From Aeromicrobium sp. (lineage in GTDB: Bacteria > Actinomycetota > Actinomycetes > Propionibacteriales > Nocardioidaceae), in assembly GCF_032084975.1 (NCBI RefSeq), contig NZ_DAMDLR010000003.1, forward strand, positions 7,453-71,452: a DNA stretch of 64,000 bases, in the 5' to 3' direction. Shown one piece after another: positions 2,609 to 62,943 of this stretch. A program made the translations under genes and the position numbers. Under the pieces are notes generated by a model. It searched no databases. It was given only the letters and a program-made list of their open reading frames with translations, and was not told where the DNA came from. Positions within the stretch are counted from its first letter, which is position 1. Every line of letters begins with the position of its first letter.

Positions 2609-2627
2609 CCCGCGACTGAGACATCCA

Positions 2628-2659
2628 GAACGGCCCCCGGCTCCTGCCGGGGGCCGTTC
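2628..2659 (+). terminator. Hairpin terminator after typA
   Basis: Perfect 13-bp stem GAACGGCCCCCGG / CCGGGGGCCGTTC with a 6-nt loop, 20 nt after the typA stop and followed by a T-containing tail (TGCTGTGCTGT). Confidence 0.7.
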
Positions 2660-2680
2660 TGCTGTGCTGTGCGTCTTGCG

Positions 2681-2703
2681 CATAGTGTGCGTCACACACT
2701 ATG
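2681..2703. promoter_or_regulatory. Candidate PadR operator (perfect 9-bp inverted repeat)
   Basis: CATAGTGTG-cgtca-CACACTATG lies 10 nt upstream of the PadR ATG (2713). A further GTGTGACAC palindrome is at 2704-2712. Confidence 0.5.
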
Positions 2704-2712
2704 GTGTGACAC

Positions 2713-3048
2713 ATGGACGACCTCACCCAGCAGCACCTGCAGGAGCTGCGTCGCGGCACCGTCGTGCTGGCCTCGCTGCTGACACTGCGCGAGCCCGGCT
2801 ACGGGTACGGGCTGCTCGAGTCCCTCGAGGGGATCGGCATCTCGGTCGACGGCAACACGCTCTACCCGCTGTTGCGGCGCCTCGAGAAGCAGGGACTGCT
2901 CACCAGCGAGTGGAACACCGACGAGGCGCGGCCCCGGAAGTTCTACCGCACCAGCGCCGAGGGTGACCGGCTCGCCGAGGCGCTGCTGACCGACTGGCAC
3001 CAGATCGACACCGCCCTGGGGCGGCTGACCGACGGAGGAACGCGATGA
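2713..3048 (+). CDS. PadR family transcriptional regulator
   Basis: 111 aa. The core GYGYGLLESLEG...GNTLYPLLRRLEKQGLLTSEW...RKFYRTSAEG is the classic PadR winged helix. Confidence 0.9.
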   Translation: MDDLTQQHLQELRRGTVVLASLLTLREPGYGYGLLESLEGIGISVDGNTLYPLLRRLEKQGLLTSEWNTDEARPRKFYRTSAEGDRLAEALLTDWHQIDTALGRLTDGGTR

Positions 3049-3965: not shown

Positions 3966-3971
3966 GCCGGT

Positions 3972-4223
3972 TCAGTACCCGGAGCCGCGCGTCTGGGCCA
4001 GGTAGACGAGCGCCCCGAGGGTGCCCAGCAGCGGGAGGATCCCCAAGGGGTTGCGCCAGACGATGTCCACGAAGACCGCCAGCGGCAGGATGATGAGCCA
4101 CACGCGCTTGGGCAGCGTGCCCGCCATCTCGAAGTCGTAGGGCTTGCGCCGCACACAATCGACCAACGCGAAGACCTTGGTGCAGATGAGGATCCACCAG
4201 ATCACGTCGGTCACGAAAAACAT
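3972..4223 (-). CDS. DUF2516-like small membrane protein
   Basis: 83 aa with two or three hydrophobic helices. Its position next to an hbhA-like gene matches Rv0476. Confidence 0.6.
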   Translation of the reverse strand: MFFVTDVIWWILICTKVFALVDCVRRKPYDFEMAGTLPKRVWLIILPLAVFVDIVWRNPLGILPLLGTLGALVYLAQTRGSGY

Positions 4224-4289
4224 GAGACGAAGACTACGGTGGGCACCCTCCCGAGAGGGTGCCCACCGTGAATTTCGTGCTCGCGTGGC

Positions 4290-5141
4290 TCAGGAAGCCG
4301 ACGCCGAGCCGGACTTCGTGGTCGCCGCCTTCTTCGCGGGAGCCTTCTTGGCGGCCGGCTTCTTGGCGGCCGACGTCGTCGTCTTCTTCGTCGCGGTGGA
4401 CGCGGACTTGGTGGCCGGCGCCTTCTTCGCGGCGGACGTGTTCGGCTTGGCGGCCGGGGCCTTCTTGGCCGCGGTGGCCTTGGTGGCGGAGGCCTTCTTC
4501 GCGGCGGGCGCCTTCTTCGCGGTCGGCTTCGTGGTGCTGGGCTTCGCCGCACCCGAGGCCTTCTTCGCGGCCGGAGCCTTCTTCGTGGTGCTCGAGGTCG
4601 ACGCCGGGCTCTTCTTCGCCGGAGCGGTCGCACGGCGGATGCGGGCGGAGCCGGCGAACGACGCGGCGGCTGCGGTCGCGCCACCGGTGGCGTCCTCGAC
4701 GACCTCGGCGGCCTTGCCGGTCAGGTCCTCCGCCTTGGCCGTGAGCTCCTCGAGGATCTCCTCGGCCTTGTCCTTCAGGTCGTCGACCAGGTCGTCGGCC
4801 TTCTCGCGGAAGTCGTCGACGGCGTCCTTGAGGTCGTCGACCTTGACGTCCGCGGCCTTGCCGCGCAGCTCGGTCACGATGGTCTCGGCGCGCGCGGCGA
4901 GGTCCTCGGCGGCGGACTTCACGTCGTCCACGGTCAGGCCCTTCGCGAGGTTGACCAGGTCGTCGCTCTTCTTCACGAGGTCGGAGTAGGCGGCCGTCGC
5001 GGAGCCGAGTGCGGTCTGCGCGAGCGCCTCGGCCTTCTTCTGCAGGCCGGCGACGTCGAAGCCCTTGACCGAGGTCGGCAGGGCACGGATGTCGTCCAGG
5101 ACGGACTTGATCTGGGCGTTGATGGTGTCGGTGATGCTCAT
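4290..5141 (-). CDS. HbhA-like protein: coiled-coil N-domain plus a long Ala/Lys/Pro-rich basic tail
   Basis: 283 aa. The N-terminal ~165 aa are acidic heptad-like helices (DDLVDDLKDKAEEILEELTAKAEDL). The C-terminal ~110 aa are KKAPAAKKAS-type repeats, as in mycobacterial heparin-binding haemagglutinin and histone-like tails. Confidence 0.7.
   Translation of the reverse strand: MSITDTINAQIKSVLDDIRALPTSVKGFDVAGLQKKAEALAQTALGSATAAYSDLVKKSDDLVNLAKGLTVDDVKSAAEDLAARAETIVTELRGKAADVKVDDLKDAVDDFREKADDLVDDLKDKAEEILEELTAKAEDLTGKAAEVVEDATGGATAAAASFAGSARIRRATAPAKKSPASTSSTTKKAPAAKKASGAAKPSTTKPTAKKAPAAKKASATKATAAKKAPAAKPNTSAAKKAPATKSASTATKKTTTSAAKKPAAKKAPAKKAATTKSGSASAS
4293..4631 (-). repeat. Low-complexity coding repeat (Ala/Lys/Pro/Thr tail of the HbhA-like gene)
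   Basis: Reiterated GCCTTCTTCGCGGC/GGCCTTCTTGGC units on the + strand encode KKAPAAKKA-like repeats on the - strand. Confidence 0.8.
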
Positions 5142-5533
5142 GTGTTCTCCTCGAGGTCTGCGGTTCCGACGAACGAGCGATAGATGTCTCGCAAGGCGGT
5201 CTTCTGGCGGGCGGTCAATCGCGGGTCACGGTCGATCGCGTCCTCGACCGAGCTCGGCCCGGCCTGCTCGGCATCCAGGAATCCCGCGCGGACGTACAAC
5301 GACTCGGCCGAGATCCTCAGTGCCTTCGCGATCTGCTGCAGCACCTCGGCGGACGGCTTGCGCAGTCCTCGCTCGATCTGGCTGAGGTACGGATTCGAGA
5401 CGTCCGCCAACTCGGCCAGCTGTCGCAAGGACATCTGCGCCTGGGTGCGCTGGTCGCGGAGGTACTCGCCGAGCGACCCGACGGCCGAACCGACCGCGGA
5501 CCCGACGGCCTCCTGCACGTTCAGCTTCCCCAT
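5138..5533 (-). CDS. XRE-family helix-turn-helix transcriptional regulator
   Basis: HTH_3 core MSLRQLAELADVSNPYLSQIERGLRKPSAEVLQQIAKAL. The start is taken as the ATG at 5533 (MGKLNV); an upstream in-frame ATG at 5572 is possible. The stop overlaps the hbhA-like start. Confidence 0.8.
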   Translation of the reverse strand: MGKLNVQEAVGSAVGSAVGSLGEYLRDQRTQAQMSLRQLAELADVSNPYLSQIERGLRKPSAEVLQQIAKALRISAESLYVRAGFLDAEQAGPSSVEDAIDRDPRLTARQKTALRDIYRSFVGTADLEENT

Positions 5534-5661
5534 GACTCCATGGTGCTTGCAAAAGTTAGCGATTGCAAGCAACTGTGATGCACGGGACAGATGAGCCGAC
5601 GCGCGACGATCGCACGTTTTCCGGAACCGGGGTCCGTGCGGTTAGCCTGAGGGCTGCCGAA

Positions 5662-7167
5662 ATGTGCTCTCGGGTGGCGCAGTTCCCTTCCCTCGCCCGC
5701 TCCATGCTCCGTCGTTGCCTCCTGGCCATCGCCCTCACCGGGTCCCTGATGCTGGCCCCCTCCATGACACCCGACGCCGAAGCGGCGCCCAAGAAGCCGG
5801 CGAAGGCCACGAAGGTGCGGGCGAAGACCACCACCTCGACGCTGACGATCCGGTGGAAGCGGCCCAAGCGCGCGACGAAGGTGTCCGTCTGCGTCAAGAC
5901 CGCGCCGCGCAAGAAGAAGTGCGTCCGGTACACCCGCACCCGCAAGACCTCCGTCACATTCCGCAAGCTGCGGCCCAACTCGGGCACCGACTTCTACTAC
6001 CAGGTGCGGTCCCATCGAGGGAAGCGCACGGCCGTGACGAAGTGGCGCAAGGCCAACCTCCGCGTCGGCAAGGGCCCGGCCAACGTCGCGGCGATCCGCC
6101 CGTCCGCCAGCCTGCTCTACACGTGGCGCAAGGCGACCAACGCGTCCAGCTACCAGCTGCAGGTGTCGCCCAGCCGCTCGTTCCGTGGCGGCGTCCGCAC
6201 CGAGAACCGTCGCGCTCCCAGCGCGAAGGTCACGGGCCTGAACGGCGGCATGGCCTACTTCGCGCGCGTGCGCGGCGTCAACGGCGCCGCCAAGGGCCCG
6301 TGGGGCCCGGTCTCGCGGATCAAGCTGGTGACCGCCCCGGCCAGGGCGTCGATCGCGACCTACAACCTGTGCGGCGAGAACAAGTGCCGCACGTCCGAGA
6401 GCGGTACGTGGTTCCTTACCAACGTCCCCAAGTGGGCCGTCCGCAAGCCCTTGGCCGGCGCCCTGATCCGCTCGGCCCAGCCCGACATCATCGCCGCGCA
6501 GGAGGCCGCCACCTCGACGGCGTTCCACACCGTCCTGCCCGGGTTCTCCCGTTCGTCCTACAAGGCGGCCCGTTCCATCTACTACAAGCCGTCGCGCTTC
6601 ACCGTCCTCGACGGTGGCTGGATGACGCTGGACGACCGCAACAAGCGCTTCGCCACGTGGAACCTGTTCCGGGACCGCTCCACCGGGACGGCCTTCTACG
6701 TCGCGAACGCGCACCTCGAGCCCTACAAGGGCGCGAAGCTCGACGCGATGCGGAACAAGCAGACGCTGCGCCTGATCCGGCGCATCCAGGCCATGAACGC
6801 GCACAACCTGCCGGTGGTCTGGGCGGGCGACTGGAACTCGAACGACTCCAACGCGAACCAGTCCGCCTATCCGGGCGGCTTCGACGCCCCGAAGCGCCGC
6901 TTCGCCGCGATCGACGTGGTGAACTCGGTCGAGCAGACCCCCAACCTGGTCAACGCCGAGCTCAACAGCGCCAACGCCGGCATCAAGACGCCCCGCGCGA
7001 GCGGTGACCACGTGGACGCGATCTACGTGCCGCGCCGTGGTGTGACGGTCGAGTCGTGGCTCATGCCGGCGAACTTCCTCGACACGGACGAGGGCCGCAT
7101 GTACGCCACTCCGTTCCCCTCGGATCACAACCCGATCGTGGCGAGACTGCTGATCGCCACCGGCTAG
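5662..7167 (+). CDS. Secreted FN3-domain + endonuclease/exonuclease/phosphatase (EEP) family protein, paralogue 1
   Basis: It has a signal-like MLRRCLLAIALTGSLMLAPSMTPDAEA and two FN3-like modules; the first is extremely basic (KKPAKATKVRAKTTTSTLTIRWKRPKRATK...). EEP motifs follow: YNLCG, AAQE, GDWNSN, GDHVD, SDHNP. Start is ambiguous (5563, 5662 or 5704). Confidence 0.8.
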   Translation: MCSRVAQFPSLARSMLRRCLLAIALTGSLMLAPSMTPDAEAAPKKPAKATKVRAKTTTSTLTIRWKRPKRATKVSVCVKTAPRKKKCVRYTRTRKTSVTFRKLRPNSGTDFYYQVRSHRGKRTAVTKWRKANLRVGKGPANVAAIRPSASLLYTWRKATNASSYQLQVSPSRSFRGGVRTENRRAPSAKVTGLNGGMAYFARVRGVNGAAKGPWGPVSRIKLVTAPARASIATYNLCGENKCRTSESGTWFLTNVPKWAVRKPLAGALIRSAQPDIIAAQEAATSTAFHTVLPGFSRSSYKAARSIYYKPSRFTVLDGGWMTLDDRNKRFATWNLFRDRSTGTAFYVANAHLEPYKGAKLDAMRNKQTLRLIRRIQAMNAHNLPVVWAGDWNSNDSNANQSAYPGGFDAPKRRFAAIDVVNSVEQTPNLVNAELNSANAGIKTPRASGDHVDAIYVPRRGVTVESWLMPANFLDTDEGRMYATPFPSDHNPIVARLLIATG

Positions 7168-7176
7168 GATGCACCC

Positions 7177-8682
7177 GTGTCCGGTCTGCCCCGATTCTTG
7201 GCCCTGGTCGGGGCGGGACTTGCGCTGACCGTGACCGCCGGTGTCCTGGCCGCGACGACCGACTCCGAGGGCAACGGCCCCGTCCTGGCCTTCGCCGGCA
7301 TCGAGACCCCGTACCTGAAGCTCGTCTCGGTGGACGTCGAGCCTCGCCAGGTCTCGCTGGCCTGGGCGGGCAACGGCGAGCAGTACCGCGTCAGCCTCGG
7401 CGACGACCTCGCTCGCCCCGACCGCACCATCGTCACGACCGAGCCGCACGTGATCCTGCCGGCCCCGGACGCGGCCGACCCCCAGGGCAAGGTCAACTAC
7501 CGCGTCGAGGAGGTCACCGACGACGCGCGCGGCCTGGCGCTCGAGGGCACCGTCACCCTGCTGCCCTCCGTCCCCCGCAAGCCGCGGGTCCGGCGCACGG
7601 CACCCGAGGGCGCCGTCGTGCGCTGGAAGCCGGCCGACTACGCCACGACGTACGACGTCGCGGTGTCGCGCTCGCGCAAGAAGCTGCCCAGCAAGGTCAA
7701 GCGGCTGGCGCGTGGCGGCACCGCCTTCGCCACGGACGCGCTCGAGCCCGAGACGACCTACTGGGTGCGGGTGCGCGCCGTCGGCGAGGCCGGCGTCAGC
7801 GACTTCGGCCCGGCCACCAAGGTGATCACCCCGCCCGACACGTCCGAGTTCACCGTCGGGTCGTGGAACATCTGCTCCGAGGCGTGCCCGGACTACGGCG
7901 GCCGCGTCGGCGGCCAGGCCTCGCAGGTGCACGCCGCCGAGATCGACATCATGACCCTGCAGGAGGCCGGCGGCGAACGCGTCGGCCCCACGACGCGCGC
8001 CGCGTTCAGCGGTGGTCCGCGCGGGCTCGTCCCGGCCGACGGTGGCGGCAACTCGCGCTACATCCTGTACTCCGCCGACAAGTTCGAGCAGCTCGGCGGC
8101 GGCCGCTGGTCGCTGGGTCACGGGCGCTGGGCCACGTGGGCCCGGTTCGAGGACCTCAAGACGGAGCGGCCGTTCATCGTCGTGAGCGTGCACCTGCTCA
8201 GCGGCCACGGCAAGACCGGCGAGCGGGCCTCCGAGATGCGCTCGCTGATGGGGTCGTTGGCGTCGGTCAACCCCGACGGCGACCCCGTCGTCCTGGCCGG
8301 CGACTTCAACTCGGGCACCCACCGCAGCGGCGACACCGTCGGGCCGGTCGTGCGATCGGCACAGTTCCGCGACACCGTCGAGATCGCCGAGGAGACCGAG
8401 AACGCCCAGGTCAACACCGGCAGCCGTCGCGGCGACACGGCGATCATGTCGGCCGACCACGTCGACCACATCTACGTCTCGCCCGACTGGGAGGTTCCGG
8501 CCTGGAAGCAGTGGGCCAGCCTCTCGGGCACGACCTACGTGGGGACCTGGCTGTCCGACCACAACATGATCGGCGCGACCCTCGGACTCGAGCGCGACCC
8601 CGAGGATGCCGTCGAACGGCCCAGTCAGGTCGTGCGGGTCCCCGCGGACCTCCACGAGGGCTCCCCGGGCACGGTCAACTGA
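7177..8682 (+). CDS. Secreted FN3 + EEP family protein, paralogue 2
   Basis: 501 aa, GTG start 9 nt after paralogue 1. It has a signal peptide MSGLPRFLALVGAGLALTVTAGVLA and an FN3 module (TYWVRVRAVGEAGVSDFGP). EEP motifs are SWNICSE, LQE, GDFNSG, ADHVDHIY, SDHNM. Confidence 0.8.
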   Translation: MSGLPRFLALVGAGLALTVTAGVLAATTDSEGNGPVLAFAGIETPYLKLVSVDVEPRQVSLAWAGNGEQYRVSLGDDLARPDRTIVTTEPHVILPAPDAADPQGKVNYRVEEVTDDARGLALEGTVTLLPSVPRKPRVRRTAPEGAVVRWKPADYATTYDVAVSRSRKKLPSKVKRLARGGTAFATDALEPETTYWVRVRAVGEAGVSDFGPATKVITPPDTSEFTVGSWNICSEACPDYGGRVGGQASQVHAAEIDIMTLQEAGGERVGPTTRAAFSGGPRGLVPADGGGNSRYILYSADKFEQLGGGRWSLGHGRWATWARFEDLKTERPFIVVSVHLLSGHGKTGERASEMRSLMGSLASVNPDGDPVVLAGDFNSGTHRSGDTVGPVVRSAQFRDTVEIAEETENAQVNTGSRRGDTAIMSADHVDHIYVSPDWEVPAWKQWASLSGTTYVGTWLSDHNMIGATLGLERDPEDAVERPSQVVRVPADLHEGSPGTVN

Positions 8683-8728
8683 CCTCCGCTGCGCGTCCGG
8701 CCCGCGAAACCGGCGACGCCTGTGACGC

Positions 8729-10054
8729 ATGAGGCTTAGGCTGGCGTCCATGCGTCTACGCCTGCTCGCCGGTGCCCTGATCGCCGTGCTGGCCGCGGCC
8801 CTGCTCGGCACACCCGCCCAGGCCGCGCCCAGGAAGCCCGGCACCGTCGGCCTCGTGTCGTTCACGACGGGCGTGACCTACACCGCTGGTGGCAGGACGT
8901 ACGCGCGAGTGCGGCTCTCGTGGCCGAAGGCCAGGAGCGCCACCCGCTACCAGGTGTTCGTCGGCCGCACGAAGGCGAGCGTCGCGAAGGCCCGGAAGCC
9001 GAAGGCGACCGTCCGCGGCACCGAGGCCGTCGTCCGCAAACTCGGCCGCGGCACGACGTACTGGTTCCAGGTCCGTGCCCTGAACGGCTCGCGCCCCGGC
9101 AACCGGTCGGCCCGCGTCGCTCGGGTGACTCCGATCAACTCCGCCACGTTGCCGACGTCGACGCACGCGACCCACTCGATGATGAGCTACAACGTCTGCT
9201 CCAACGCGTGCACGAGCCGCCCCTGGACGCGGCGGCAGCCGCTCGTCGTGAACCAGGTCCTCGCGGTGCGACCCGGCGTCCTCGCACTGCAGGAGGCCAG
9301 TCGCTGGTCGACGACGATCCCCGGCTACGTCGAGGCCGAGGGCGGCAAGGACAACCGCCTCCTCTACCGTCCCGGCATCTACGAGCAGGTCGAGCAGGAG
9401 CTGACCGCCGAGCAGCAGTCCGGCGACTGCGAGATCGCCCGCACCCCGGACGGACGCAAGGTGCTCGACGAGAACGGCGACCCGGTCCGCGTCGAGCCGT
9501 GCATCCTGCCCGTCGACGGCGTGGCCGATCCGCCCGGCAAGGACGCGCCGTGGGTCATGCTGCGGCACCGGGTGACCGGTGAGGAGGTGCTGTTCGTCGG
9601 GGTCCACCTGCTGACCGGCAGCACCAACACCAACGCGCGCTACCGCGCCGGCCAGGTGCACCAGGTCTTCGCGGACCTCCGTGCCCAGCTCGACTGGTGG
9701 GGTCGCGACTTCCGCACGACGCCGATCGCCCTGATCGGCGACTTCAACACCAACCGGAGCCGGTCCAACCACGCCGTCGTGGAGTCCGCGATGAAGCGCT
9801 ACGGCTTCTGGGACACGTACGAGCAGGCGCGCCGCCTCTCGCGCCAGCACCAGAACACGGCCAACCCGAACTGGCAGTGGCGCACGCCCACGATCGGCGT
9901 CACGTGGGGCGACCACGTCGACAAGGTGTGGGTGCGCCCCAAGCGCAGCCTCGTGCGCTCGTGGGCGAACGTCGCCCTGATGAATGGCACGCAGTACGCG
10001 GCGCCGCTGCCGTCCGATCACCACCCGCTGCTGGTGCGCGCGCAGCTGTCCTGA
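8729..10054 (+). CDS. Secreted FN3 + EEP family protein, paralogue 3
   Basis: 441 aa; an alternative ATG is at 8750. It has a signal peptide ...LLAGALIAVLAAALLGTPAQA and an FN3 module (TYWFQVRALNGSRPG). EEP motifs are SYNVCSN, LQE, GDFNTN, GDHVDKVW, SDHHP. Confidence 0.8.
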   Translation: MRLRLASMRLRLLAGALIAVLAAALLGTPAQAAPRKPGTVGLVSFTTGVTYTAGGRTYARVRLSWPKARSATRYQVFVGRTKASVAKARKPKATVRGTEAVVRKLGRGTTYWFQVRALNGSRPGNRSARVARVTPINSATLPTSTHATHSMMSYNVCSNACTSRPWTRRQPLVVNQVLAVRPGVLALQEASRWSTTIPGYVEAEGGKDNRLLYRPGIYEQVEQELTAEQQSGDCEIARTPDGRKVLDENGDPVRVEPCILPVDGVADPPGKDAPWVMLRHRVTGEEVLFVGVHLLTGSTNTNARYRAGQVHQVFADLRAQLDWWGRDFRTTPIALIGDFNTNRSRSNHAVVESAMKRYGFWDTYEQARRLSRQHQNTANPNWQWRTPTIGVTWGDHVDKVWVRPKRSLVRSWANVALMNGTQYAAPLPSDHHPLLVRAQLS

Positions 10055-10099
10055 AGGTCGGCCGCCCGGCCCGCCCCGGCCCGCCCCGGCCCGGCCCCA

Positions 10100-10212
10100 C
10101 TCTCGGCCCGACCCGGCTCCGCCACCACTTTTGGTGCGCGATTACGGCGGATCTGCCCCGAGGACGGGAATCCTGCACCAAAAGTGCGGGGCGGGACGGG
10201 CGGGACGGGCGT
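10100..10212. repeat. Nested palindromic intergenic element, copy 1 (core CACTTTTGGTGC ... GCACCAAAAGTG)
   Basis: Core arms at 10126-10137 and 10175-10186 are perfect reverse complements separated by 37 nt. GC-rich outer arms extend them imperfectly (GGCCCGCCCC x2 on the left, GGGCGGGAC x2 on the right). It lies between convergent genes. Confidence 0.7.
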
Positions 10213-10223
10213 CCGCGCGGGAG

Positions 10224-11992
<1,769 letters not shown>

Positions 11993-11996
<4 letters not shown>

Positions 11997-12919
11997 AGGT
12001 TCAATCCGGCCCGCACGTGCAGGCCTGCGTCAGGGTCGACGATGGGCTCCTGCGCGGCGGCGACGCCGTCGGCGAGGAGGGTGGCATCGACCGGAGTGTT
12101 GCGTTTGATGGTGGCGAGCGCGATGGGACCGAGCTCGTGGTGGTGCGCGGCGCTGCCGACCTGGCCGACGACCTTGTCGCCGAGCAGGACGTCGGCGCCG
12201 TGCGCGGGCAGCTGGTTGACCGAGCCGTCGAGGTGCAGCAGCGTCAGCCGCCGCGGCGGACGGCCCAGGTTGTACACGCGAGCGACGGTCTCCTGGCCGC
12301 GGTAGCAGCCCTTGTCGAGGTGGACGGCCGACCCGAGCAGGCCGACCTCGTTGGGGATCGTGCGCTCGTCGGTGTCCAGGCCGGGGCGCGGACGACCCTC
12401 GGCGATGCGCAGCGCCTCCCAGGCGAACACCCCCACCGGCGTCCCCGGCACGGCCGCGACGTCGGCGACGAGCTCGGTCACGGGGCGATCGACCCAGCGG
12501 CCGATCACGAATCGGTCCTCGACCGGCGCGACCTCGACACGGGACATGAAGCGCATCCGGTCGAGGAACTCGATCAGGGGGGCGCCCGCACCGGGCTCGG
12601 TGTGCGCCCAGAAGGTCTCGCCGTCATCGACGCCGGTGAACGCGTGCTCGATGCGACCCTGCGGCGACAACAGCAGCACGTCGGTCCAGACGCCGGGAGC
12701 CAGACCCTCGAGGAACTGGGTCGTGAGCGAGTGCAGCCACGTCAGCCGGTCGGGTCCGGTGACGCGCAGGACGTCGCGGTGCGAGAGGTCGACGAAGCCG
12801 TCGCCGGACAGCAGGACGCGCTGCTCGGCCGCGAAGGCCGAGCCGTAGTGAGCCGCGACGCCCGCGTCGGGCGCCTCGGCCTCGACCGCTCCGGGCCGAT
12901 CCAGCAGCGGGCTAGACAC
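11993..12919 (-). CDS. YgfZ/GcvT-like folate-binding protein
   Basis: 308 aa. It contains LSHRDVLRVTGPDRLTWLHSLTTQ and the KGCYRGQE motif characteristic of the YgfZ family. Its stop overlaps the helicase start. Confidence 0.8.
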
Positions 12920-16067: not shown

Positions 16068-17390
16068 TCAGATCCCGTACTGGAACTCGACGATCATCCA
16101 GCCGAAGAACCCGAAGCCCAGCGCACACCACACGACGCCCGCCGCCGCGAGCAGGACACCGCCTCCCCATCGACGCGTGCGGTCCCGGGCGACCCACAGC
16201 ACGCCGCGCACGACGAACGGCAGGCTGAGCAGCAGGACGGGCAGGAGCAGCAGCCGCGGCCTGGCGTGCATGATCCCGTCCGACCCCAGCACGCTCCCGG
16301 CCACGAGGATCGCCGTCAGCCAGACCTGCCACGGCAGCCAACGGCGCAGCAACGGCCACAGCGACGAGGCGCACAGCACGCCGGCGACGATGATCGCCCA
16401 GCTCGACAGCACGTAGGCCACCTCGTCGTGGTCGCCCCGGTTCTGCACCACGAGGTGCTCGCTCAGCCACGAGAGCGTGGCCAGACCGAGGTCGAACTGC
16501 GAGCTCCAGCCTCGCTCCTGAGCGGCGAAGTACCCGCCGATCTCGGCGACCACGCCGTCGGCCCAGTGCAGGTACGAAGCCATGCCCAACGCGCCCACGA
16601 AGGGCGCCGTCACCGCTGCGACGGGGAACCCCGGCCGTCGGCGGGCCCACCCCCACAGCTCGACGGCGGCCACGACGACCAGCGTCAGGATCAACGCGAT
16701 CGCGGTGAGACGGGTCAGCCCGGCGAACAGGGTCAGCACGCCCGCGGCGAGATACCGACGGCGCAACATCATCACCAGCGCCCACACCGTCAGGGCGCTG
16801 AACAGCGCCTCGGAGTACGGCATCCAGTAGATGAAGCTCATCGGCGCACCGAAGGCCAGGACGGTGACCGCCACCGTCAGCACGACCTGCGTGCGGACCG
16901 ACAGCGCGGGCGGCACTGACCCCTCGGTGGGCATGCGCCGCGCGACGTCGAGAGCCAGCCGTGCGACTCCCCAGGCGAACACGAAGGAGGCCGCGGCCGA
17001 CACGACCAGCGCCGCGATGAACGTCGCATCCTGCTTCCCCAGCACCGAGAGCGGCGAGGAGAACATCCTGACCAGGACCGGGTAGCCCGGGAAGAAGGCC
17101 ACGGACTGCCACTCGACGCGCTCGCTCGGGTCCGGCGAGACGGAGAACCCGAAGTAGCCGAACTCCGCGATCTTGGTCATCCACCCCGCGTCCCACTTGA
17201 TCAGGACGTCGCGCAGAGCCTTGTCGTCCTGGGCGGCCCACGCAGCGAGAGCCCACGCCTGGAGCAGGCCGAGTGTCGCGGCCGTCACGATGGCGGAGAC
17301 CGGGACGGCCAGCCGGCGGGACCGCGGGGCGGGAGACGCCGGCCGCGTGGGCACGGACTCCTGCACCTCGTCCGCGTACGCAGTCGACAT
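16068..17390 (-). CDS. Polytopic membrane glycosyltransferase (GT-C, PIG-V/mannosyltransferase-like)
   Basis: 440 aa with more than 8 hydrophobic helices. The N-terminal loop motif WDAGWMTKIAEFGY resembles the WDAxWYxxIAxxGY signature of mannosyltransferase family proteins. Confidence 0.65.
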   Translation of the reverse strand: MSTAYADEVQESVPTRPASPAPRSRRLAVPVSAIVTAATLGLLQAWALAAWAAQDDKALRDVLIKWDAGWMTKIAEFGYFGFSVSPDPSERVEWQSVAFFPGYPVLVRMFSSPLSVLGKQDATFIAALVVSAAASFVFAWGVARLALDVARRMPTEGSVPPALSVRTQVVLTVAVTVLAFGAPMSFIYWMPYSEALFSALTVWALVMMLRRRYLAAGVLTLFAGLTRLTAIALILTLVVVAAVELWGWARRRPGFPVAAVTAPFVGALGMASYLHWADGVVAEIGGYFAAQERGWSSQFDLGLATLSWLSEHLVVQNRGDHDEVAYVLSSWAIIVAGVLCASSLWPLLRRWLPWQVWLTAILVAGSVLGSDGIMHARPRLLLLPVLLLSLPFVVRGVLWVARDRTRRWGGGVLLAAAGVVWCALGFGFFGWMIVEFQYGI

Positions 17391-54994: not shown

Positions 54995-55095
54995 TCCCGC
55001 ACGTTAGCGGAATCGGTCGGCCAGCCGCACGGGGCCGACGGTTCTCGGACAGATCCCCCAGTTCCGTGACGGATCACGGCACTGGGCCGTGAGTG

Positions 55096-56340
55096 TCAGC
55101 CCGGCTGGCGTGCCGCGATGTCCGTGCGGTGATGGCCACCGCGGATGCGGATCAGGTCGACCGCGGCGTAGGCACGCTCACGCGCCTGGTCGAGGGACTC
55201 GCCGACCGCCGTCACCGACAGCACGCGCCCCCCGGCCGTGACCAGGTTCCCGTCCTCGTCGATTCGGGTGCCCGCGTGGATCACGTCCACGCCCTCGAGC
55301 GCGTTCGCCTCGTCGACCCCCTCGATGCGATCGCCCTGGACCGGGGCCTGGGGATAGCCCTCGGCCGCGACGACGATCGTGACGGCGGCGCCGTCATGCC
55401 ACTGCGGCAGCCCGACCTCGCCGAGCGTGCCGGTGGCCGCGCCGTGCAGCAGCGCCGACAGCGGCGTCTTGAGCAGCGCCAACAGCGCCTGGGTCTCGGG
55501 GTCACCGAAGCGGGCGTTGAACTCGATGACGCGCAGCCCGCGGCTGGTCAGCGCGAGCCCGGCGTACAGCAGGCCCTGGAACGGCGTGCCGCGCGAGGCC
55601 ATCTGCTCGACGGTGGGCACGAGCACGCGCCGGCAGACATCGGCCACCAGGTCGTCGGGCGCCCAGGCGAGCGGCGTGTAGGCGCCCATCCCTCCGGTGT
55701 TCGGTCCCTCGTCGCCGTCGTACGCGCGCTTGAAGTCCTGGGCCGGCTGCAGTGGCAGCACGGTCGAGCCGTCGGTGATCGCGAACAGCGAGACCTCGGG
55801 TCCGTCGAGGAACTCCTCGATCACGACGCGATCGCACGAGGTGCCGTGCGCCAAGGCGGCGTCCCGGTCGTCGGTGACCACGACGCCCTTGCCCGCCGCC
55901 AACGCGTCGTCCTTGACGACGTACGGGGCGCCGAATGCGTCGAGGGCGTCGGCGACCTGCTCATCCGTCTCGCACACGCGCGCCAGTGCGGTGGGCACGT
56001 CGGCCGCGGCCATGACCTGCTTCGCGAACGCCTTCGAGCCCTCGATTTGGGCCGCCTCGGCACTGGGCCCGAAGCAGGCCACACCCGCCTCGCGGACGGC
56101 ATCGGCCACCCCGGCGACCAGCGGCGCCTCGGGTCCGACGACGACCAGGTCCGCTCCGGTGCGGGTGGCGAGGTCCGCCACCGCGACACCGTCGAGCGGG
56201 TCGACCGGGTGCAGGGTCGCGATCACGGCCATGCCGGGGTTGCCCGGGGCCGCGTGGACCTCGGTGACCTGCGGGTCGCGGGACAGGGCCAGGGCCAGGG
56301 CGTGCTCGCGGCCGCCGGTGCCGATGACGAGAACCTTCAC
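55096..56340 (-). CDS. purD: Phosphoribosylamine--glycine ligase
   Basis: 414 aa. It begins MKVLVIGTGGREHALA, has an ATP-grasp core and contains RFGDPE. Confidence 0.95.
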   Translation of the reverse strand: MKVLVIGTGGREHALALALSRDPQVTEVHAAPGNPGMAVIATLHPVDPLDGVAVADLATRTGADLVVVGPEAPLVAGVADAVREAGVACFGPSAEAAQIEGSKAFAKQVMAAADVPTALARVCETDEQVADALDAFGAPYVVKDDALAAGKGVVVTDDRDAALAHGTSCDRVVIEEFLDGPEVSLFAITDGSTVLPLQPAQDFKRAYDGDEGPNTGGMGAYTPLAWAPDDLVADVCRRVLVPTVEQMASRGTPFQGLLYAGLALTSRGLRVIEFNARFGDPETQALLALLKTPLSALLHGAATGTLGEVGLPQWHDGAAVTIVVAAEGYPQAPVQGDRIEGVDEANALEGVDVIHAGTRIDEDGNLVTAGGRVLSVTAVGESLDQARERAYAAVDLIRIRGGHHRTDIAARQPG

Positions 56341-56384
56341 GCGCCGAGCCTAGCGAGGCCTGTCGTCGCGGTTCCGGCACGGCA

Positions 56385-56415
56385 CCGGGGGTCCGGCCGT
56401 CGGCCGAACCCCCGG
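56385..56415 (-). terminator. Hairpin downstream of the repeat-rich surface-protein gene
   Basis: 8-bp stem CCGGGGGT / ACCCCCGG with a 15-nt GC-rich loop, 16 nt beyond the stop at 56431. Confidence 0.5.
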
Positions 56416-56430
56416 AGCCACCCCACGAAC

Positions 56431-58707
56431 TCAGCGCACCCGGATCTTCCGGACATTGCTGGTCTTCGCCGCGGCGAAGGACGTGGCTCGCAGGCGCGCC
56501 ACGACCTTCTGGTTGCCCTTCGCGAGCTTGCTCGTGCGGATGGTCGCACGGCCGGCAGCGTTGACGCGAGCCGTGCCGACCTTCTTGCCGCCGATGAACA
56601 GGTCGACGCGCGAGTTCTTCACTCGCGCCGTCGACGAGACGACGACCTTGACGTTGATCCGCTTGCCGGCCTTGGCCCGGCGAGGCGAGGCGAGACGGAT
56701 TCCGCTGAAGGCCTTGTTGACCTTCACCGAGATCCTCGCGGTGCTGGTGGCACCGCGATCGTCGGTGGCCGTGACGGTCACGTTGCGGGTCGCCCGCGAG
56801 TTGTTCGGAACCGTGACACTCAGGACCTGGCCCGAGATCGAGGCACCGGCCGTGGTCGTCGCGAGCGTCACGGCGTTCCCGTCGCGGTCACTCGCACCGA
56901 GGTCGACCGACACCGGCACGCCGACGCGGGTCACCAGGTTGCGGTCCGGCAGGGTCGGCGCGTGGTTGACGAACGAGTACGTCGTGCCGTCCCACGTGAT
57001 GTCCGAGACCTTCGCCGACCCACCCTTGTCGCTGAGGACACCGAACGCGAGGACCTTGTAGGCCGTCATCTGGCCGAGAAGCTCGCGCAGCGGAGCCGCC
57101 GTGTTCGCCGGGACGGTGCCGACGGCCTTGGTCGCGATCCACCTGTCGTCCAGGTCGATCACATTGGTACCGGGCTTGGCGGGATCGTACGGACGCAGCG
57201 TCGCGAAGCTCGTCCCGGCAGACGCCTCGCTCGAGAAGAACACGGGCACCTGGAGCCACGCGTCGCCCTCCGTGACGGTGTAGGAGGCGGAACCCAGTGC
57301 CCTCCGCAGGTCCACGTTCTTGGTGGCCACGTCGTTCGCGTTGTTCTCGTAGCCCTTGATGACCTGCGACGGGCCGGTCAGCTCGAGACCCCCGGCGGTC
57401 GTGACCCGGTGGTTCCCGGCCGCGTTCGGGTACCCCTGGTGCCACCCGGCGTACGCCGAGTCGTCCGGACGGATGTCACCCTCGGTCACGGTGACCGCCT
57501 CGGTCTGGCCCGCAGCCCGGGTGAAGACGTGCTTCGTGCCCTCCCACGTGATGTCCGAGACGGTCGCCGAGCCGGGCGACGCCTGGTGCACGCCGAACGC
57601 GAGCACCTTGTAGGACCCCAGCCCCGCGATCAGGTCGGAGAGCGGACGGCGCGCGTTGGCGGGAATCGAACCCAGCGCGCGGCTGGAGATCCACTCGTCG
57701 TCCAGCGCGATCGTGTGCGTGCCCGGGCCCTGCTGGGTCGCCTGACGCAAGGTGGCGAACTGGACGCCGGAGCCGTTGTCGAAGTACACCGGCAGCTGGA
57801 AGTTCACGGCACCCTCGACGACCGTGTACGAGGCGTTGCGCACCGCGAACGGCAGCACCGCGTTCTTGACGTCGACGTCCTGCGCGTTGTTCGCATAGCC
57901 GTGGATGACCTGAGAGTTCCCCGCGAGCTCGAGGCCCGCGGCGGTGACCTGGTGTCGGAGGGCTGCGTTGTCATAGCCCTGGTGCCAGCCGGCGTACGTG
58001 GTCGCGTCGGGCGCGACGTCGCTGTCGGTGACGGTCGCCGACGTCGGCGCGCTGGGGACGAAGTCGTACTTCGTGCCGTCCCACGTGAGGTCCTTGACGG
58101 AGCCGGTCATGTTCGTGTCCGTGAAGACGCCGAAGGCCAGGGTCTTGTAGTCGTCGCCCAGCGCGTCCAGGATCTGCCCCAGCGGGTAGGGGCGGTTCTT
58201 GACGATCGTGTCGCCGATGGCGCCGGTGGACAGCCACTCATCGGTCAGCTCGACATCGTTGGCGCCCTGGTCGGCACGCGTGGCCGGACGCAGGGTGGTG
58301 AAGCCGATCCCGTCCGCGGCGGAAGCACTCGGGTAGAAGACCGGGACCTGCAGCCAGAGCGTGCCGGCGCTGACCGTGTACTCGACCTCGGGCAACACGT
58401 CATCGAGGTCGGCGTTCTTGACGGCGACATCCTTGCTGTTGTTCTCGTAACCCTTGATGACCTGGGACTTGCCGATGAGGGACAGGCCGTCGGCGGTGAC
58501 GGCGTGCCGGTCGACGGCACCAGCCTGACCCTGGTGCCAGCCGGCGTAGGGCTCGGCGTCAGCGGCGATGTCACCAGCCGTGACCTGGACTACCGTCGTT
58601 TCGGCGGCAAGCGCCTGCGGCGCCAGCGCGAGCGCGGAAGCGGACAAGGCCGCTACCGATGCTCCGGCGATGAGTCGGCGTGGGCCGATCTTGGACGAGA
58701 CGCGCAT
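56431..58707 (-). CDS. Large secreted protein: three ~180-aa repeats of an unrecognised domain plus cadherin/Ig-like and Big-like C-terminal domains
   Basis: 758 aa with signal peptide RRLIAGASVAALSASALALAPQALA. The repeats are marked by YAGWHQG (aa 54, 238, 419) ...SQVIKGYENN...LQVPVF...FATLR...DDEW...LAFGV...V(S/K)D(I/L)TWDGT. Then come a cadherin-like unit (DLGASDRDGNAVTL...VTVTATDDRGATSTARISVKVN) and a basic Ig-like tail. Confidence 0.75.
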   Translation of the reverse strand: MRVSSKIGPRRLIAGASVAALSASALALAPQALAAETTVVQVTAGDIAADAEPYAGWHQGQAGAVDRHAVTADGLSLIGKSQVIKGYENNSKDVAVKNADLDDVLPEVEYTVSAGTLWLQVPVFYPSASAADGIGFTTLRPATRADQGANDVELTDEWLSTGAIGDTIVKNRPYPLGQILDALGDDYKTLAFGVFTDTNMTGSVKDLTWDGTKYDFVPSAPTSATVTDSDVAPDATTYAGWHQGYDNAALRHQVTAAGLELAGNSQVIHGYANNAQDVDVKNAVLPFAVRNASYTVVEGAVNFQLPVYFDNGSGVQFATLRQATQQGPGTHTIALDDEWISSRALGSIPANARRPLSDLIAGLGSYKVLAFGVHQASPGSATVSDITWEGTKHVFTRAAGQTEAVTVTEGDIRPDDSAYAGWHQGYPNAAGNHRVTTAGGLELTGPSQVIKGYENNANDVATKNVDLRRALGSASYTVTEGDAWLQVPVFFSSEASAGTSFATLRPYDPAKPGTNVIDLDDRWIATKAVGTVPANTAAPLRELLGQMTAYKVLAFGVLSDKGGSAKVSDITWDGTTYSFVNHAPTLPDRNLVTRVGVPVSVDLGASDRDGNAVTLATTTAGASISGQVLSVTVPNNSRATRNVTVTATDDRGATSTARISVKVNKAFSGIRLASPRRAKAGKRINVKVVVSSTARVKNSRVDLFIGGKKVGTARVNAAGRATIRTSKLAKGNQKVVARLRATSFAAAKTSNVRKIRVR
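56968..58599 (-). repeat. Three tandem in-frame coding repeats (~545 nt each) within the 758-aa gene
   Basis: Landmark YAGWHQG motifs are spaced 184 and 181 aa apart, with collinear conserved blocks. The repeats are diverged at DNA level. Confidence 0.8.
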
Positions 58708-58746
58708 GGAGACGATCCCTTCGGGGACACGCCTGGGGAACAGGCG

Positions 58747-58832
58747 GTCCGGAGACTCCGGACCTCGACACCGTAGGTGTCAAGTGGAACGAAAGTGGCG
58801 GGAGTGATCTCGAACCACTCGAAAGTGGTTCG
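58747..58832 (-). terminator. Cluster of three perfect short palindromes after the four-gene operon and upstream of the surface-protein gene
   Basis: GTCCGGAG-A-CTCCGGAC (58747-58763); GACACC-GTA-GGTGTC (58767-58781); CGAACCACT-CGAA-AGTGGTTCG (58811-58832). They could act as a terminator and/or as operators. Confidence 0.45.
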
Positions 58833-58852
58833 TCAGGACTACGTCCGATGAC

Positions 58853-59398
58853 TCAGCAGGACCGACCCGGACCGTCCTGCGCGCGTCGACGCGCTTCGGA
58901 GGCGAGTCCGGTCCAGGGCCGCGGCTCGTCGGCGCCCGTCAGGAACGAGCCCCACGTCAAGGGGACGTCCTGGGGCAGGCTCAGCTCGTCGAAGGCGCGG
59001 GTCCAGCCGGCCAGCAGGCGCTCGTCATAGCGTCCCGACGTCAACAGGAACGAGGTGACAGCCGAGACGGTGCCGCGACGGTCCTCATCGTCCTCGCGCA
59101 GCAGCCCGGCGAGGTCGGCGCCGAACCCCTCGGCGTCGAACTCCGGCCACGAGGCGGCCGCGTGCAGCCCGTCGCGCAGCAGGTCGGGCAGGCGGTCCCA
59201 GTCGGTGAGGTCCTCGCGGAGCGGACCGAACGCGATCGTGGCCAGCGCCGAGACGACACCGTGGGCCCCGATGGCCGCGAAGAAGCCCGCCATCGCCTCG
59301 GGGCGCCGGTACTGGCGCTCCAGGACCCGCATGAGCCGGGTGAAGCGCGCCGCCTGCTGTCGCGAGACGAGATCGGAAGGCGGGAGGACGTCAGTCAT
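58853..59398 (-). CDS. Hypothetical protein D of the four-gene operon (181 aa, acidic, no TM helix)
   Basis: The ATG at 59398 overlaps the stop of the upstream gene by 8 nt. The sequence MTDVLPPSDLVSRQQAARFTRLMRVLERQYRRPEAMAGFFAAIGAHGVV...LREDDEDRRGT... matches no family I recognise. Confidence 0.55.
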   Translation of the reverse strand: MTDVLPPSDLVSRQQAARFTRLMRVLERQYRRPEAMAGFFAAIGAHGVVSALATIAFGPLREDLTDWDRLPDLLRDGLHAAASWPEFDAEGFGADLAGLLREDDEDRRGTVSAVTSFLLTSGRYDERLLAGWTRAFDELSLPQDVPLTWGSFLTGADEPRPWTGLASEARRRAQDGPGRSC

Positions 59399-60137
59399 CG
59401 GCCACCTGGGACCTGCGGCCCGTGACGACGTCGCCCAGCGCCGCGACGACCTCGTCGAGGGTGAGCGGGACGAGCGTGACCTCGACCTCCTCGTCGCCGG
59501 TGCGGGGCGCGTGCTCGACGCGGTACCAGCCCTGAGAGCCCGCGTCGACGACCGTGACGGAGGCGTCGACGGCGCGCTCGGCCAGGTTTCCCGTCGCGCG
59601 CCAGGCCAGGCGCCACCCCTCGAGGATCGGATCGAGCTGCGGGTCCCCGCTCGGGTCGACACCGTCGAGCGTCATGGCCGCGTCGATGACGGTGGTGTTC
59701 GTGCCGACGGTGGCGCGGTCGGCGACGACCTCGCGGTCGAAGATCGCCAGCCACTGGCGCAGCTGGTCGCGAAGCAGGGTCAGCTCCGTGGCCGTCACGA
59801 CGACCGCGCCCTCGGCGTCGGGCGTGCTGGTGGTGGCCCGGCCGTCGGGCATCCAGCCGATGAACATGGGCTTCAGGGTGGCGCCGTCGAAGCGCTCGAC
59901 GACGATGCTGCGCGCGGGGCCCACCGCGACCTCGACGAGGCTGGCGGCCGTGGGATGGACGCCCGCCGGGGTCACGAGCCCCTCCTGGCGCAGGCGGGTG
60001 GGCGCGTCACCCGGGGTGATCCGACCCGCATGGACCTCGGCGAGCTTGATCAGATCGTCGTAGCCGACGGTCAGCTGCAGGAAGGTCTCGTCGAGTTTCG
60101 GCACGGTGGCTCCAGCGTTCGCAGGGGTGTCGTTCAT
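59391..60137 (-). CDS. Hypothetical protein C of the four-gene operon; possible EspG-like chaperone
   Basis: 248 aa from MNDTPANAG. The segment LRQEGLVTPAGVHPTAASLVEVAVGPARSIVVERFDG resembles the EspG pattern (..GIV..g.v.p.la..l.vLa.P...v.v..). This resemblance is judged by eye only. Confidence 0.5.
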   Translation of the reverse strand: MNDTPANAGATVPKLDETFLQLTVGYDDLIKLAEVHAGRITPGDAPTRLRQEGLVTPAGVHPTAASLVEVAVGPARSIVVERFDGATLKPMFIGWMPDGRATTSTPDAEGAVVVTATELTLLRDQLRQWLAIFDREVVADRATVGTNTTVIDAAMTLDGVDPSGDPQLDPILEGWRLAWRATGNLAERAVDASVTVVDAGSQGWYRVEHAPRTGDEEVEVTLVPLTLDEVVAALGDVVTGRRSQVADD

Positions 60138-60145
60138 GTCGTGGA

Positions 60146-61102
60146 TCAGTCCCAGAAGGTGAGCGTGTCGCCGATGTCGGACCAGGTGTCGCCGTCGGTG
60201 ACGGTGTCCCAGGCGTTCGAGGCCGTCTCGCTGATCTCGTCCCAGTGGTCGACGACCTCGGCCCCGGCCCAGACCAGGCCGGTCGTCACGGCGATGGCCC
60301 CGGTGACCGGGTTCGGTGCGATCAGGAACGCGGTCGTGGACGCGCTGAAGGCGGTCTCGGCGACGTCGGCGACGTAGCCCGCTCCCTCGCGCTCGAAGGC
60401 GTCGATCGGGTTGCCCTGCTGGATGAGGTTGTTGACCCCGACGGCGGTGCTGAAGACGCCGCCGGCGATGCCCAGGCCGCGCATGAGGCCCAGTCCGCCG
60501 GGATTGCGCGCGAGCGGATCGGCCCAGCCCGCGGTGGGGAACCGGGTGCCCGGTCCGGCCCACTTCGGCAGCTTGTTGAGCAGCGCGGTGGGCGGCGCGG
60601 CGTGCCGGCCGCCACCGGACAGCATCCAGCGGGCCCACTCGCCGGTGCGCCCGCCGGCGTTGGCCATGCGGGTGAGCATCTGACGGCCGACGAGACCGGT
60701 CTGGAAGATCGGCGCGACGCCCGTGGCCATCTTCTTCATCTTGCCCAGCGCCGTGGCGATCGAGATGAGCGGGAAGTCGTCGTCGTTGCCGAAGATGTTG
60801 CCGAACTCGGCCCCGAGGTACTCGCCCAGCAGGTCGTTGAGGGTGTCGTTGATCGCGCCGAGCGACATCGAGACCTTGCCCTCGCCCGACTCATCGAGCA
60901 GCAGGGCGATGTCGGCGAGCCCGTTGAGCTTCTCGGCGGCATCCTCCAGGAAGGTGGCCTTGTCCTCGATGTTGTCCAGGCTCGGCAGCGCCACGGGGCT
61001 GGCCGACCTCGCCGAGGCGGCGTTCGAGCGGATCTGGCTGGCGAGCTCCTCGGCGCGCGTGGCCGAGAGCGTCAGCTTGTCGTAGTCCATCTCCACGGTC
61101 AT
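60146..61102 (-). CDS. Hypothetical protein B of the four-gene operon: helical N-domain plus Gly-rich hydrophobic C-domain (candidate secreted membrane-active effector)
   Basis: 318 aa. The ATG at 61102 overlaps the upstream stop (ATGA) and is preceded by GAAGGAGAG. The N-terminal ~120 aa are helical and acidic (DYDKLTLSATRAEELASQIRSN...). The C-terminus has GLGLMRGLGIAGGVFSTAVGVNNLI and TTAFLIAPNPVTGAIAVTTGLVWAGAEVV segments and a Trp/Asp-rich end (...TFWD). Confidence 0.6.
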   Translation of the reverse strand: MTVEMDYDKLTLSATRAEELASQIRSNAASARSASPVALPSLDNIEDKATFLEDAAEKLNGLADIALLLDESGEGKVSMSLGAINDTLNDLLGEYLGAEFGNIFGNDDDFPLISIATALGKMKKMATGVAPIFQTGLVGRQMLTRMANAGGRTGEWARWMLSGGGRHAAPPTALLNKLPKWAGPGTRFPTAGWADPLARNPGGLGLMRGLGIAGGVFSTAVGVNNLIQQGNPIDAFEREGAGYVADVAETAFSASTTAFLIAPNPVTGAIAVTTGLVWAGAEVVDHWDEISETASNAWDTVTDGDTWSDIGDTLTFWD

Positions 61103-61629
61103 GAGCGCTGACTCTCCTTCAGTGCAGCCCACAGGGCGATGTGCTCGGGTGCCGCGAGGTTCGCCACGCGCGGCGCGATGAGGTCATACTCGCGCACGAT
61201 CGACCATTCCGTCACCGCGACGTTGATCGGCGCCGCCCACCGACGCGACGCCACGAGGACGCCGGCGTCGCAGCGCAGCGTCACCAGGTCGGGCAGGGAG
61301 CGTCCGGTGTACTCCATCCCCGGCAGGACGAATCCCGCGTCGCCGGTGATGGCGTGCCGCTTGCGCCGGACCAGGCCGCCGGGGCTGCCCTGCGCGGTGG
61401 TCACCGTGGCGACCCGCGCGCCGTTCAGGCTGACCGGGACGCCGTCGTCGAAGACGCTGCGCCACTGGTTCGCCTCGCGCTCGGCCGCGGGACGCCGGTC
61501 CGTCACGTCAAGCTCGATGACCGCGTCCTCGACCGTGGCCTCGATGACGCCGTCGTGCACCACGACGCGCACCGGACCCCAGCGGGCCCGGCGGAACGCC
61601 TGCCACTCGAACCGCTTCTTCTCGTTCAC
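61099..61629 (-). CDS. Hypothetical protein A of the four-gene operon (176 aa)
   Basis: GTG start 30 nt after the purA stop. It appears soluble and beta-rich (RVVVHDGVIEATVEDAVIELDV...VTLRCDAGVLVASRRW...). I recognise no family. Confidence 0.55.
   Translation of the reverse strand: MNEKKRFEWQAFRRARWGPVRVVVHDGVIEATVEDAVIELDVTDRRPAAEREANQWRSVFDDGVPVSLNGARVATVTTAQGSPGGLVRRKRHAITGDAGFVLPGMEYTGRSLPDLVTLRCDAGVLVASRRWAAPINVAVTEWSIVREYDLIAPRVANLAAPEHIALWAALKESQRS

Positions 61630-61659: not shown

Positions 61660-62943
<1,284 letters not shown>

Follow-up and report, generated by a model that had tools for sequence, protein, structure and literature searches.

An operon between purA and purD of Aeromicrobium as a candidate orphan type VII-like substrate and EspG-fold chaperone module

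EspG chaperones bind the hydrophobic tip of PPE proteins, and to our knowledge the only clients for which their function is understood are the PE/PPE proteins of mycobacteria. In type VIIb secretion systems (T7SSb), membrane-active toxins such as Staphylococcus aureus TspA and Streptococcus gallolyticus TelE are fused to LXG/WXG domains and come with accessory proteins. Orphan PE/PPE/EspG-like operons occur away from the ESX loci in Mycobacterium abscessus, e.g., Mab_0147c-0149c (PMC13491425), and the accepted scenario is that EspG was a late addition in the Mycolata (PMC4791881). Here we describe a four-gene operon in a 64,000-nucleotide stretch of the genome of an Aeromicrobium sp. (92-kb contig NZ_DAMDLR010000003.1, positions 7,453 to 71,452; hereafter the window). 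Its genes, which we call A, B, C, and D, lie on the minus strand next to purA. We moderately favor the reading that they form an orphan module in which B is a type VII-like substrate and C its EspG-fold chaperone.

The closest known analogues of this module would be the orphan PE/PPE/EspG-like operons of mycobacteria (PMC13491425). As in the mycobacterial PE/PPE-EspG units, an EspG-fold gene stands beside a helical substrate with a YxxxD/E-type motif, the location can be far from genes of a secretion machine, and the expected task of the chaperone is to cover a hydrophobic region of its substrate and to hand this substrate over to an FtsK/SpoIIIE-type ATPase. There are also clear differences. 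The client B is a single polypeptide with a tape-measure-like hydrophobic C-terminal domain rather than a PE-PPE heterodimer; the hosts are non-mycolate (Nocardioidaceae, Streptomyces, Acidimicrobiia, Nitriliruptoria); and in at least two of the loci discussed below (L017 and L042), the linked ATPase has a forkhead-associated (FHA) domain, like the firmicute EssC. Here an EspG-fold protein is paired with a client other than PE/PPE across four actinobacterial classes, and a search of the literature found no description of the B family or of the B-C pairing.

Gene C (59391..60137, minus strand; 248 amino acids) encodes a chaperone-like protein and is the universal partner of B. An earlier note on this DNA, made from the sequence alone, had seen in C a stretch resembling EspG-type secretion chaperones and had proposed AlphaFold modeling followed by Foldseek as a check. 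The AlphaFold2 model of C, based on an alignment of 27 sequences, has a predicted local distance difference test score (pLDDT) of 89.7 and a predicted template modeling score (pTM) of 0.82. In a Foldseek search of this model against the PDB, the top 13 matches are all EspG3 or EspG1 (E-values 1e-9 to 6e-8, probability 1.00), with template modeling (TM) scores of 0.46-0.55 over approximately 200-265 aligned columns, i.e., most of the length. The first match that is not an EspG has an E-value of 1.6e-3, weaker by a factor of approximately 1e5, and a TM-score of 0.16. The suspected likeness is thus confirmed at the level of the predicted fold, which is the two-lobed beta-sheet/helix arrangement of EspG1/3/5. 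Unlike mycobacterial EspG, C is too divergent to be recognized by the Pfam family PF14011 (ESX-1_EspG): C of the window has no Pfam match at E ≤ 1, and only one of 29 C relatives is matched by PF14011 (E=1.7e-5). The profile of 29 C relatives has EspG1 (5vba) as a weak top match (E=0.006), and UniProt calls near-identical proteins EspG. The true start of C is uncertain; NCBI places it 11 codons downstream (237 amino acids, WP_313404393), other sources give 248 amino acids, and residues 1-9 are disordered in the model.

How widely is C linked to B? We surveyed the gene neighborhoods of 44 loci from Aeromicrobium, Streptomyces, Salsipaludibacter (Nitriliruptoria), Egibacteraceae, and metagenome-assembled genomes of Acidimicrobiia and Ilumatobacteraceae. 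B and C are neighbors in 40 of these loci, in four actinobacterial classes (Actinomycetes, Acidimicrobiia and Nitriliruptoria among them). Of the four loci without C, two lie on contigs that are short or end close by, and in two the match to B is very partial. The joint conservation of all four genes, which the earlier note had envisaged, does not extend beyond this pair. The A family is present in 22 of the 44 loci and never alongside f3 or f4, two accessory genes of the Streptomyces type, of which f3 is DUF3093-like with two transmembrane helices. D is present in 8 of the 44, in Aeromicrobium and its nearest relatives only.

The candidate substrate B (60146..61102, minus strand; 318 amino acids) belongs to a family of 193 clusters at 50% identity, found by exhaustive search and without annotation. 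Relatives of B are approximately 300-680 amino acids long, and the region they share starts near residue 90 and is always C-terminal. The AlphaFold2 model (pLDDT 83.2) bears out the proposed combination of a helical N-terminal domain with hydrophobic C-terminal helices. The N-terminal domain (residues 1-104; 60791..61102, minus strand) is variable, and its helices 7-34 and 41-69 are predicted to form a helix-turn-helix hairpin of approximately 100 residues (pLDDT 84-96). It stands in the same position as the WXG100 or T7SS_signal domains of relatives: among 29 homologues, six have a Pfam match to WXG100 and four to T7SS_signal. These family members uphold the suggested link between B and type VII export. 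A W-x-G motif is found in the short N-terminal domain of 33 of 108 family members, the first 80 positions of the family profile match EsxB-type structures (E=0.013-0.04), and at one locus (L015) a neighboring protein is above the WXG100 threshold. Directly after the N-terminal domain, in a flexible stretch of low pLDDT, lies Y95-LGA-E99 (Y-L-G-A-E, residues 95-99; 60806..60820, minus strand). In the family alignment it forms a [FYW]xxx[DE] motif: 91 of 108 members have an aromatic residue at position 95, and 86 of 108 have D or E at position 99. Judged by its residues, this motif resembles the YxxxD/E type VII secretion motif.

In contrast to the variable N-terminal domain, the hydrophobic helical core of B (residues 202-290; 60233..60499, minus strand) is near-invariant across actinobacterial classes, with about 60-70% identity. 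It consists of helices 202-228, 241-261, and 265-285 and a QQGNPIDAFEREGAGY loop. The core consensus of the family reads GIAGGxxST…LxQQGNPIDAFEREGAGYVADVAxTAFSASTTAFLIAPNPVTGA…VWAGAEVVDHWD, and the hydrophobic core of B itself carries the QQGNPIDAFEREG loop. The hydropathy maximum of the core (1.3-1.5 on the Kyte-Doolittle scale) is below that of a classical transmembrane helix, which would fit a protein that stays in solution until it reaches a membrane. The core is followed by an acidic tail (residues 287-318; 60149..60244, minus strand) with a tryptophan approximately every 11 residues (W287, W298, W309, and W317). This spacing is a property of the family: 11 is the modal distance between tryptophans in the tails (117 of 526 intervals).

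Other members of the family lie close to the gene of a candidate export ATPase. In 15 of the 44 loci, an EssC/EccC-like FtsK/SpoIIIE ATPase is encoded within 10 kb of B-C, which we count in favor of the type VII-like reading, and small WxG proteins are often found beside this ATPase. The EssC-like ATPase has three P-loops in L017, and its N-terminal FHA domain is confirmed in both L017 and L042. In L017 (Acidimicrobiaceae, 1470-12648), the genes for the ATPase, B, C, and CpaB-like, TadZ-like, TadA-like, and TadC-like proteins succeed one another on a single strand, separated by short gaps. These Tad-like genes also come after C-B modules in L015 and in about eight loci of Streptomyces. A recurrent supercluster can be recognized in eight loci (L017, L015, L028, L029, L032, L036, L039, and L040), with an EssC-like ATPase, one or two C-B modules, and then CpaB-like and TadZ-like proteins, a T2SSE ATPase and two T2SSF proteins; the Streptomyces loci also have either a small WxG protein or a membrane protein that is DUF3093-like. 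A 1299 amino acid open reading frame of L032 (396-4295, plus strand) is no gene but the antisense shadow of the one for the EssC-like ATPase. In Streptomyces typhae (L038, 12377-18076), a 1899 amino acid Rhs-repeat protein (DUF6531 and RHS repeats) adjoins tandem C-B modules.

These arrangements raise the question of whether B is a cargo at all. It might be a resident membrane part of a non-canonical envelope machine composed of the FHA-EssC-like ATPase and the Tad-like proteins, with C as an assembly chaperone. The uninterrupted gene order of L017 and the Tad-like genes that follow C-B in Streptomyces and L015 speak for such a role, as does the extreme conservation of the B core; moreover, no canonical EccB, EccD, EccE, or MycP is among the Pfam-annotated neighbors in L042 and L044. 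However, in Aeromicrobium and in most loci of the A type the module has neither an ATPase gene nor a Tad gene within 10 kb, the helices of B fall short of classical transmembrane hydropathy, and the Streptomyces cases may represent a single ancestral arrangement. We regard a resident machine part as quite unlikely.

The C-terminal half of B has a further resemblance. Residues approximately 195-314 of B in the window match six PHROG families (phrog_58, 1272, 28, 1535, 991, and 16297), all of them tail tape-measure proteins, with E-values from 8.6e-4 to 0.06, and a 45%-identical homologue of B matches two tape-measure PHROG families. The B family profile matches Gp14 of Brochothrix phage NF5 (PDB 9m8o, E=7e-4), which is present there in three copies and is probably the tape-measure protein of this phage (PMC12917162). 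Eight versions of B with a shuffled tail and one with a reversed tail have no PHROG match; the resemblance, weak as it is, therefore depends on the order of the residues rather than on composition. Like segments of siphophage tape-measure proteins, B has Gly/Ala/Thr-rich hydrophobic helices followed by a tryptophan every 11 residues or so. Unlike those proteins, it is chromosomal and has no significant structural match. B as a tape-measure protein in its own right was rejected, as it has 318 amino acids where more than 600 are usual and lies between purA and purD, not in a tail module. An origin of B from a prophage or plasmid was likewise rejected: relatives of B were not found in phage and plasmid collections (tblastn) or in a scan of IMG/VR. 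For the same reason, we do not take the tape-measure resemblance as evidence of phage origin.

The genomic position of the operon bears on its history. The module occupies the slot between purA (61660..62943, minus strand; the conserved flank upstream of A and co-oriented with it) and purD (55096..56340, minus strand; the conserved downstream flank) in all Aeromicrobium loci recovered, including a distant species (L003) in which B is locally only 48% identical and has a different N-terminus. In the closest relatives, L004 and L005, the stop codon of D is approximately 40 nucleotides from the purD start. In the window, a 2.4-kb segment absent from L004 and L005 separates D from purD (interval 56341-58852); it contains palindromes and a gene for an Ig-like surface protein (56431..58707, minus strand; 758 amino acids, Pfam Big_9 and Big_3_5), which lies outside the module. 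The cassette is thus not a recent insertion, and the accessory insertion that the earlier note had offered as one of two possibilities is not supported; what was inserted is the surface-protein gene, with the palindromes as part of its segment. Three inverted repeats are indeed present in the region between D and the surface-protein gene (58746..58832), where three perfect palindromes had been described as the end of the operon, but only two are perfect (58746-58764 and 58811-58832, each 9+9), while the third (58764-58784) pairs at 8 of 9 positions. No T-tract was found at 58746-58832. Since the repeats lie inside a strain-specific insert that L004 and L005 lack, they do not mark a conserved end of the operon. 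The surface protein has, N-terminal to its Big_9 and Big_3_5 domains, three tandem repeats of approximately 185 amino acids, a domain without a Pfam match; each repeat holds 'YAGWHQG…SQVIKGYENN…VKN'.

With this position in mind, one could take the four genes for a cytoplasmic module of purine metabolism, or, given the weak tape-measure matches of B, for the remnant of a degenerate prophage, the likeness to EspG and WXG proteins being incidental. The cassette does share the strand of purA and purD, and the gaps are short (30 nucleotides to purA and, in relatives, approximately 40 to purD). Outside Aeromicrobium, however, the module is found in unrelated contexts, e.g., with gyrB/gyrA in Salsipaludibacter (L001), with alaS in L043, and, at other loci, next to the gene of an EssC-like ATPase. 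There are no phage genes nearby and no relatives in phage collections, and the match of C to the EspG fold is both strong and specific. We consider either version of this explanation highly improbable.

The flanking genes of the B-C pair differ from lineage to lineage. A (61099..61629, minus strand; 176 amino acids, GTG start) encodes a soluble, basic protein with an N-terminal RRxxWGP motif, whose family adjoins B-C in Aeromicrobium, Salsipaludibacter, and Acidimicrobiia. D (58853..59398, minus strand; 181 amino acids) has a basic N-terminus, a transmembrane-like helix, and an acidic C-terminal domain. The hydrophobic segment of D (residues 34-61; 59216..59299, minus strand) reaches a Kyte-Doolittle maximum of 1.84 and is conserved among D homologues. 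Judged by this segment, D is probably anchored in the membrane, and its former description as a small acidic cytoplasmic protein does not fit. The D family has only 27 clusters, all at least 60% identical. Neither A nor D had been assigned to a family by the earlier note, and no credible match has emerged since: in A, Pfam gives only sub-threshold noise and NCBIfam no match; D has no match in either database at E ≤ 1, nor do B and C; PHROG has no match to A or D; and PADLOC matches none of the four proteins. The profile of the A family has no credible relative in Pfam or the PDB. By hhalign, there is no relationship among A, D, C, f3, f4, f7, and f36, so D as a divergent form of A, f3, or f4 is ruled out. 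We conclude that A and D are lineage-specific accessory factors. The gene immediately upstream of B in Salsipaludibacter (L001, 9723-9920) encodes 65 amino acids with two hydrophobic helices and might be that of a further lineage-specific membrane partner.

All four are genuine genes. The four open reading frames, their coordinates, and their start/stop coupling are confirmed both from the sequence and by independent gene calls: A starts 30 nucleotides from the purA stop (61660), A and B share an ATGA, B and C are 8 nucleotides apart, and C and D overlap in ATGACTGA. A separate assembly (L045) gives identical lengths for the four genes, and public databases list the four products as "hypothetical protein" of Aeromicrobium. 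The GC content at third codon positions (GC3) of A and B is 0.92-0.95. We compared the window with its closest relatives, L004 and L005, by the ratio of nonsynonymous to synonymous substitution rates (dN/dS). The values are 0.11-0.14 for B, 0.16-0.21 for C, 0.22-0.25 for D, and 0.25-0.69 for A; those of the flanking genes are 0.06-0.08 (purA) and 0.15-0.18 (purD). These low values show that the four genes are real and that all are under purifying selection; B is comparable to purD. A is the fastest-evolving gene of the operon. Between the window and L005, the identity is 61% for A (counterpart at 9477-10004) against 94% for B, 88% for C, 85% for D, and 95% for purA; for A, this means either rapid diversification or replacement through recombination. 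It is found in tandem duplicate in L010 and L043 and on both sides of the module in L003. Neither a canonical promoter nor a canonical terminator was found in the region 58.6-61.8 kb, and Rfam has no RNA family match at 54-64 kb in the window.

Could B be a weapon? The earlier note had compared the operon with polymorphic toxin/immunity cassettes; B would then be a secreted, membrane-depolarizing antibacterial toxin in the manner of TspA and TelE, C would be its export chaperone, and D or A would confer immunity. Like TspA and TelE, B joins a helical N-terminal domain of the secretion type to a Gly-rich hydrophobic C-terminal domain, which is membrane-active in the two toxins, and its Gly/Ala-rich helices have the sub-transmembrane hydropathy expected of a protein that passes from a soluble state into a membrane. 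T7SS_signal domains are found in some relatives, B has small accessory genes beside it that evolve fast and are sometimes duplicated (A-A in L010 and L043), some of the accessory proteins nearby are of the membrane type (D, f3, and the 65 amino acid protein of L001), and an Rhs protein is next to one Streptomyces locus. However, the pattern of variation is the inverse of that in polymorphic toxins: conservation in B is highest in the presumed toxin domain, which is invariant rather than polymorphic, while the N-terminal domain varies. There is no conserved membrane immunity gene, and because A, D, f3, and f4 are unrelated to one another, no immunity family tracks the invariant domain. B is single-copy and vertically inherited at a fixed site of the core genome, is not found in plasmids, phages, or viral contigs, and has a dN/dS as low as that of purD. 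Furthermore, B has no LXG domain, and its chaperone has the EspG fold and is not a small helical partner of the Lap type. We consider a toxin rather unlikely, and the toxin/immunity comparison of the earlier note is only weakly supported.

We return to the substrate/chaperone reading and to how such a module might work. What we observe are predicted folds, the architecture of the B family, and the linkage of the genes; the sequence of events that follows is inferred. B would be made in the cytoplasm, where C would keep it soluble. The site on B that is bound by C would most likely be the conserved linker or the hydrophobic region (residues approximately 90-290), by analogy with EspG on the tip of PPE. 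The N-terminal hairpin and Y95xxxE99 may then be recognized by an FtsK/SpoIIIE ATPase that is EssC/EccC-like and whose gene would lie in another part of the genome. After export, the tape-measure-like helices and the Trp-periodic tail of B would insert into the membrane or lie on it. As to its final destination, we favor a conserved membrane, envelope, or channel role in the producer over that of an interbacterial toxin, because the C-terminal core is near-invariant across four actinobacterial classes, because B is a single-copy gene at a fixed site of the core genome, and because no conserved immunity gene lies alongside. A similar proposal exists for EsxE-EsxF of Mycobacterium tuberculosis, helical proteins of the type VII kind that would insert into a membrane of the producer as a channel instead of killing competitors (PMC7810871). 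Unlike B, EsxE and EsxF are WXG100 proteins of approximately 100 amino acids without a separate hydrophobic domain or an EspG partner (PMC7810871).

Several observations weigh against this reading. The N-terminal domain of B in the window has neither a W-x-G motif nor a Pfam match; compared with WxG-type N-terminal domains by hhalign, the Aeromicrobium-type domain reaches a probability of only 15%, and the Aeromicrobium-type B profile has no WXG100 or EsxB match in the PDB. The likeness to tape-measure proteins is weak, with E-values between 7e-4 and 0.06, and a Foldseek search of the B model against the PDB and BFVD gives no significant match. Finally, the 64-kb window contains no type VII ATPase, Ecc, Tad, or WxG gene, and most loci of the A type, including the window, are in housekeeping contexts without a nearby ATPase. 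The absence of an EssC-like ATPase gene agrees with the label "orphan substrate locus" that the earlier note had offered as one of two possibilities.

Two further open reading frames of the window, which do not touch the module, may be recorded here. A 1227 amino acid frame on the plus strand (55093-58776) is an antisense shadow of real genes in DNA of approximately 70% GC. A 440 amino acid frame on the minus strand (16068-17390) has a GC3 of 0.94 and gene-like codon statistics and no Pfam match at E ≤ 1e-4.

It is tempting to go further and to see in B and C the conserved core of an ancient secretion module that extends through the actinobacteria, with an EspG-type chaperone, a single-chain substrate of the WXG type, a tape-measure-like envelope conduit, and a machine composed of an FHA-EssC-like ATPase and Tad-like proteins. 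We think it unlikely that all of this holds. If it does, EspG chaperones would be older than PE/PPE proteins and the mycomembrane, and not a late invention of the Mycolata. The B family offers a new protein domain for annotation, with approximately 190 clusters at 50% identity, and with B and C there is now a candidate substrate and chaperone on which the type VII-like systems of actinobacteria other than mycobacteria, so far poorly understood, can be put to the test. The resemblance of the B core and tail to phage proteins may also mean that a type VII substrate and the segment with which tape-measure proteins insert into membranes are linked in evolution.

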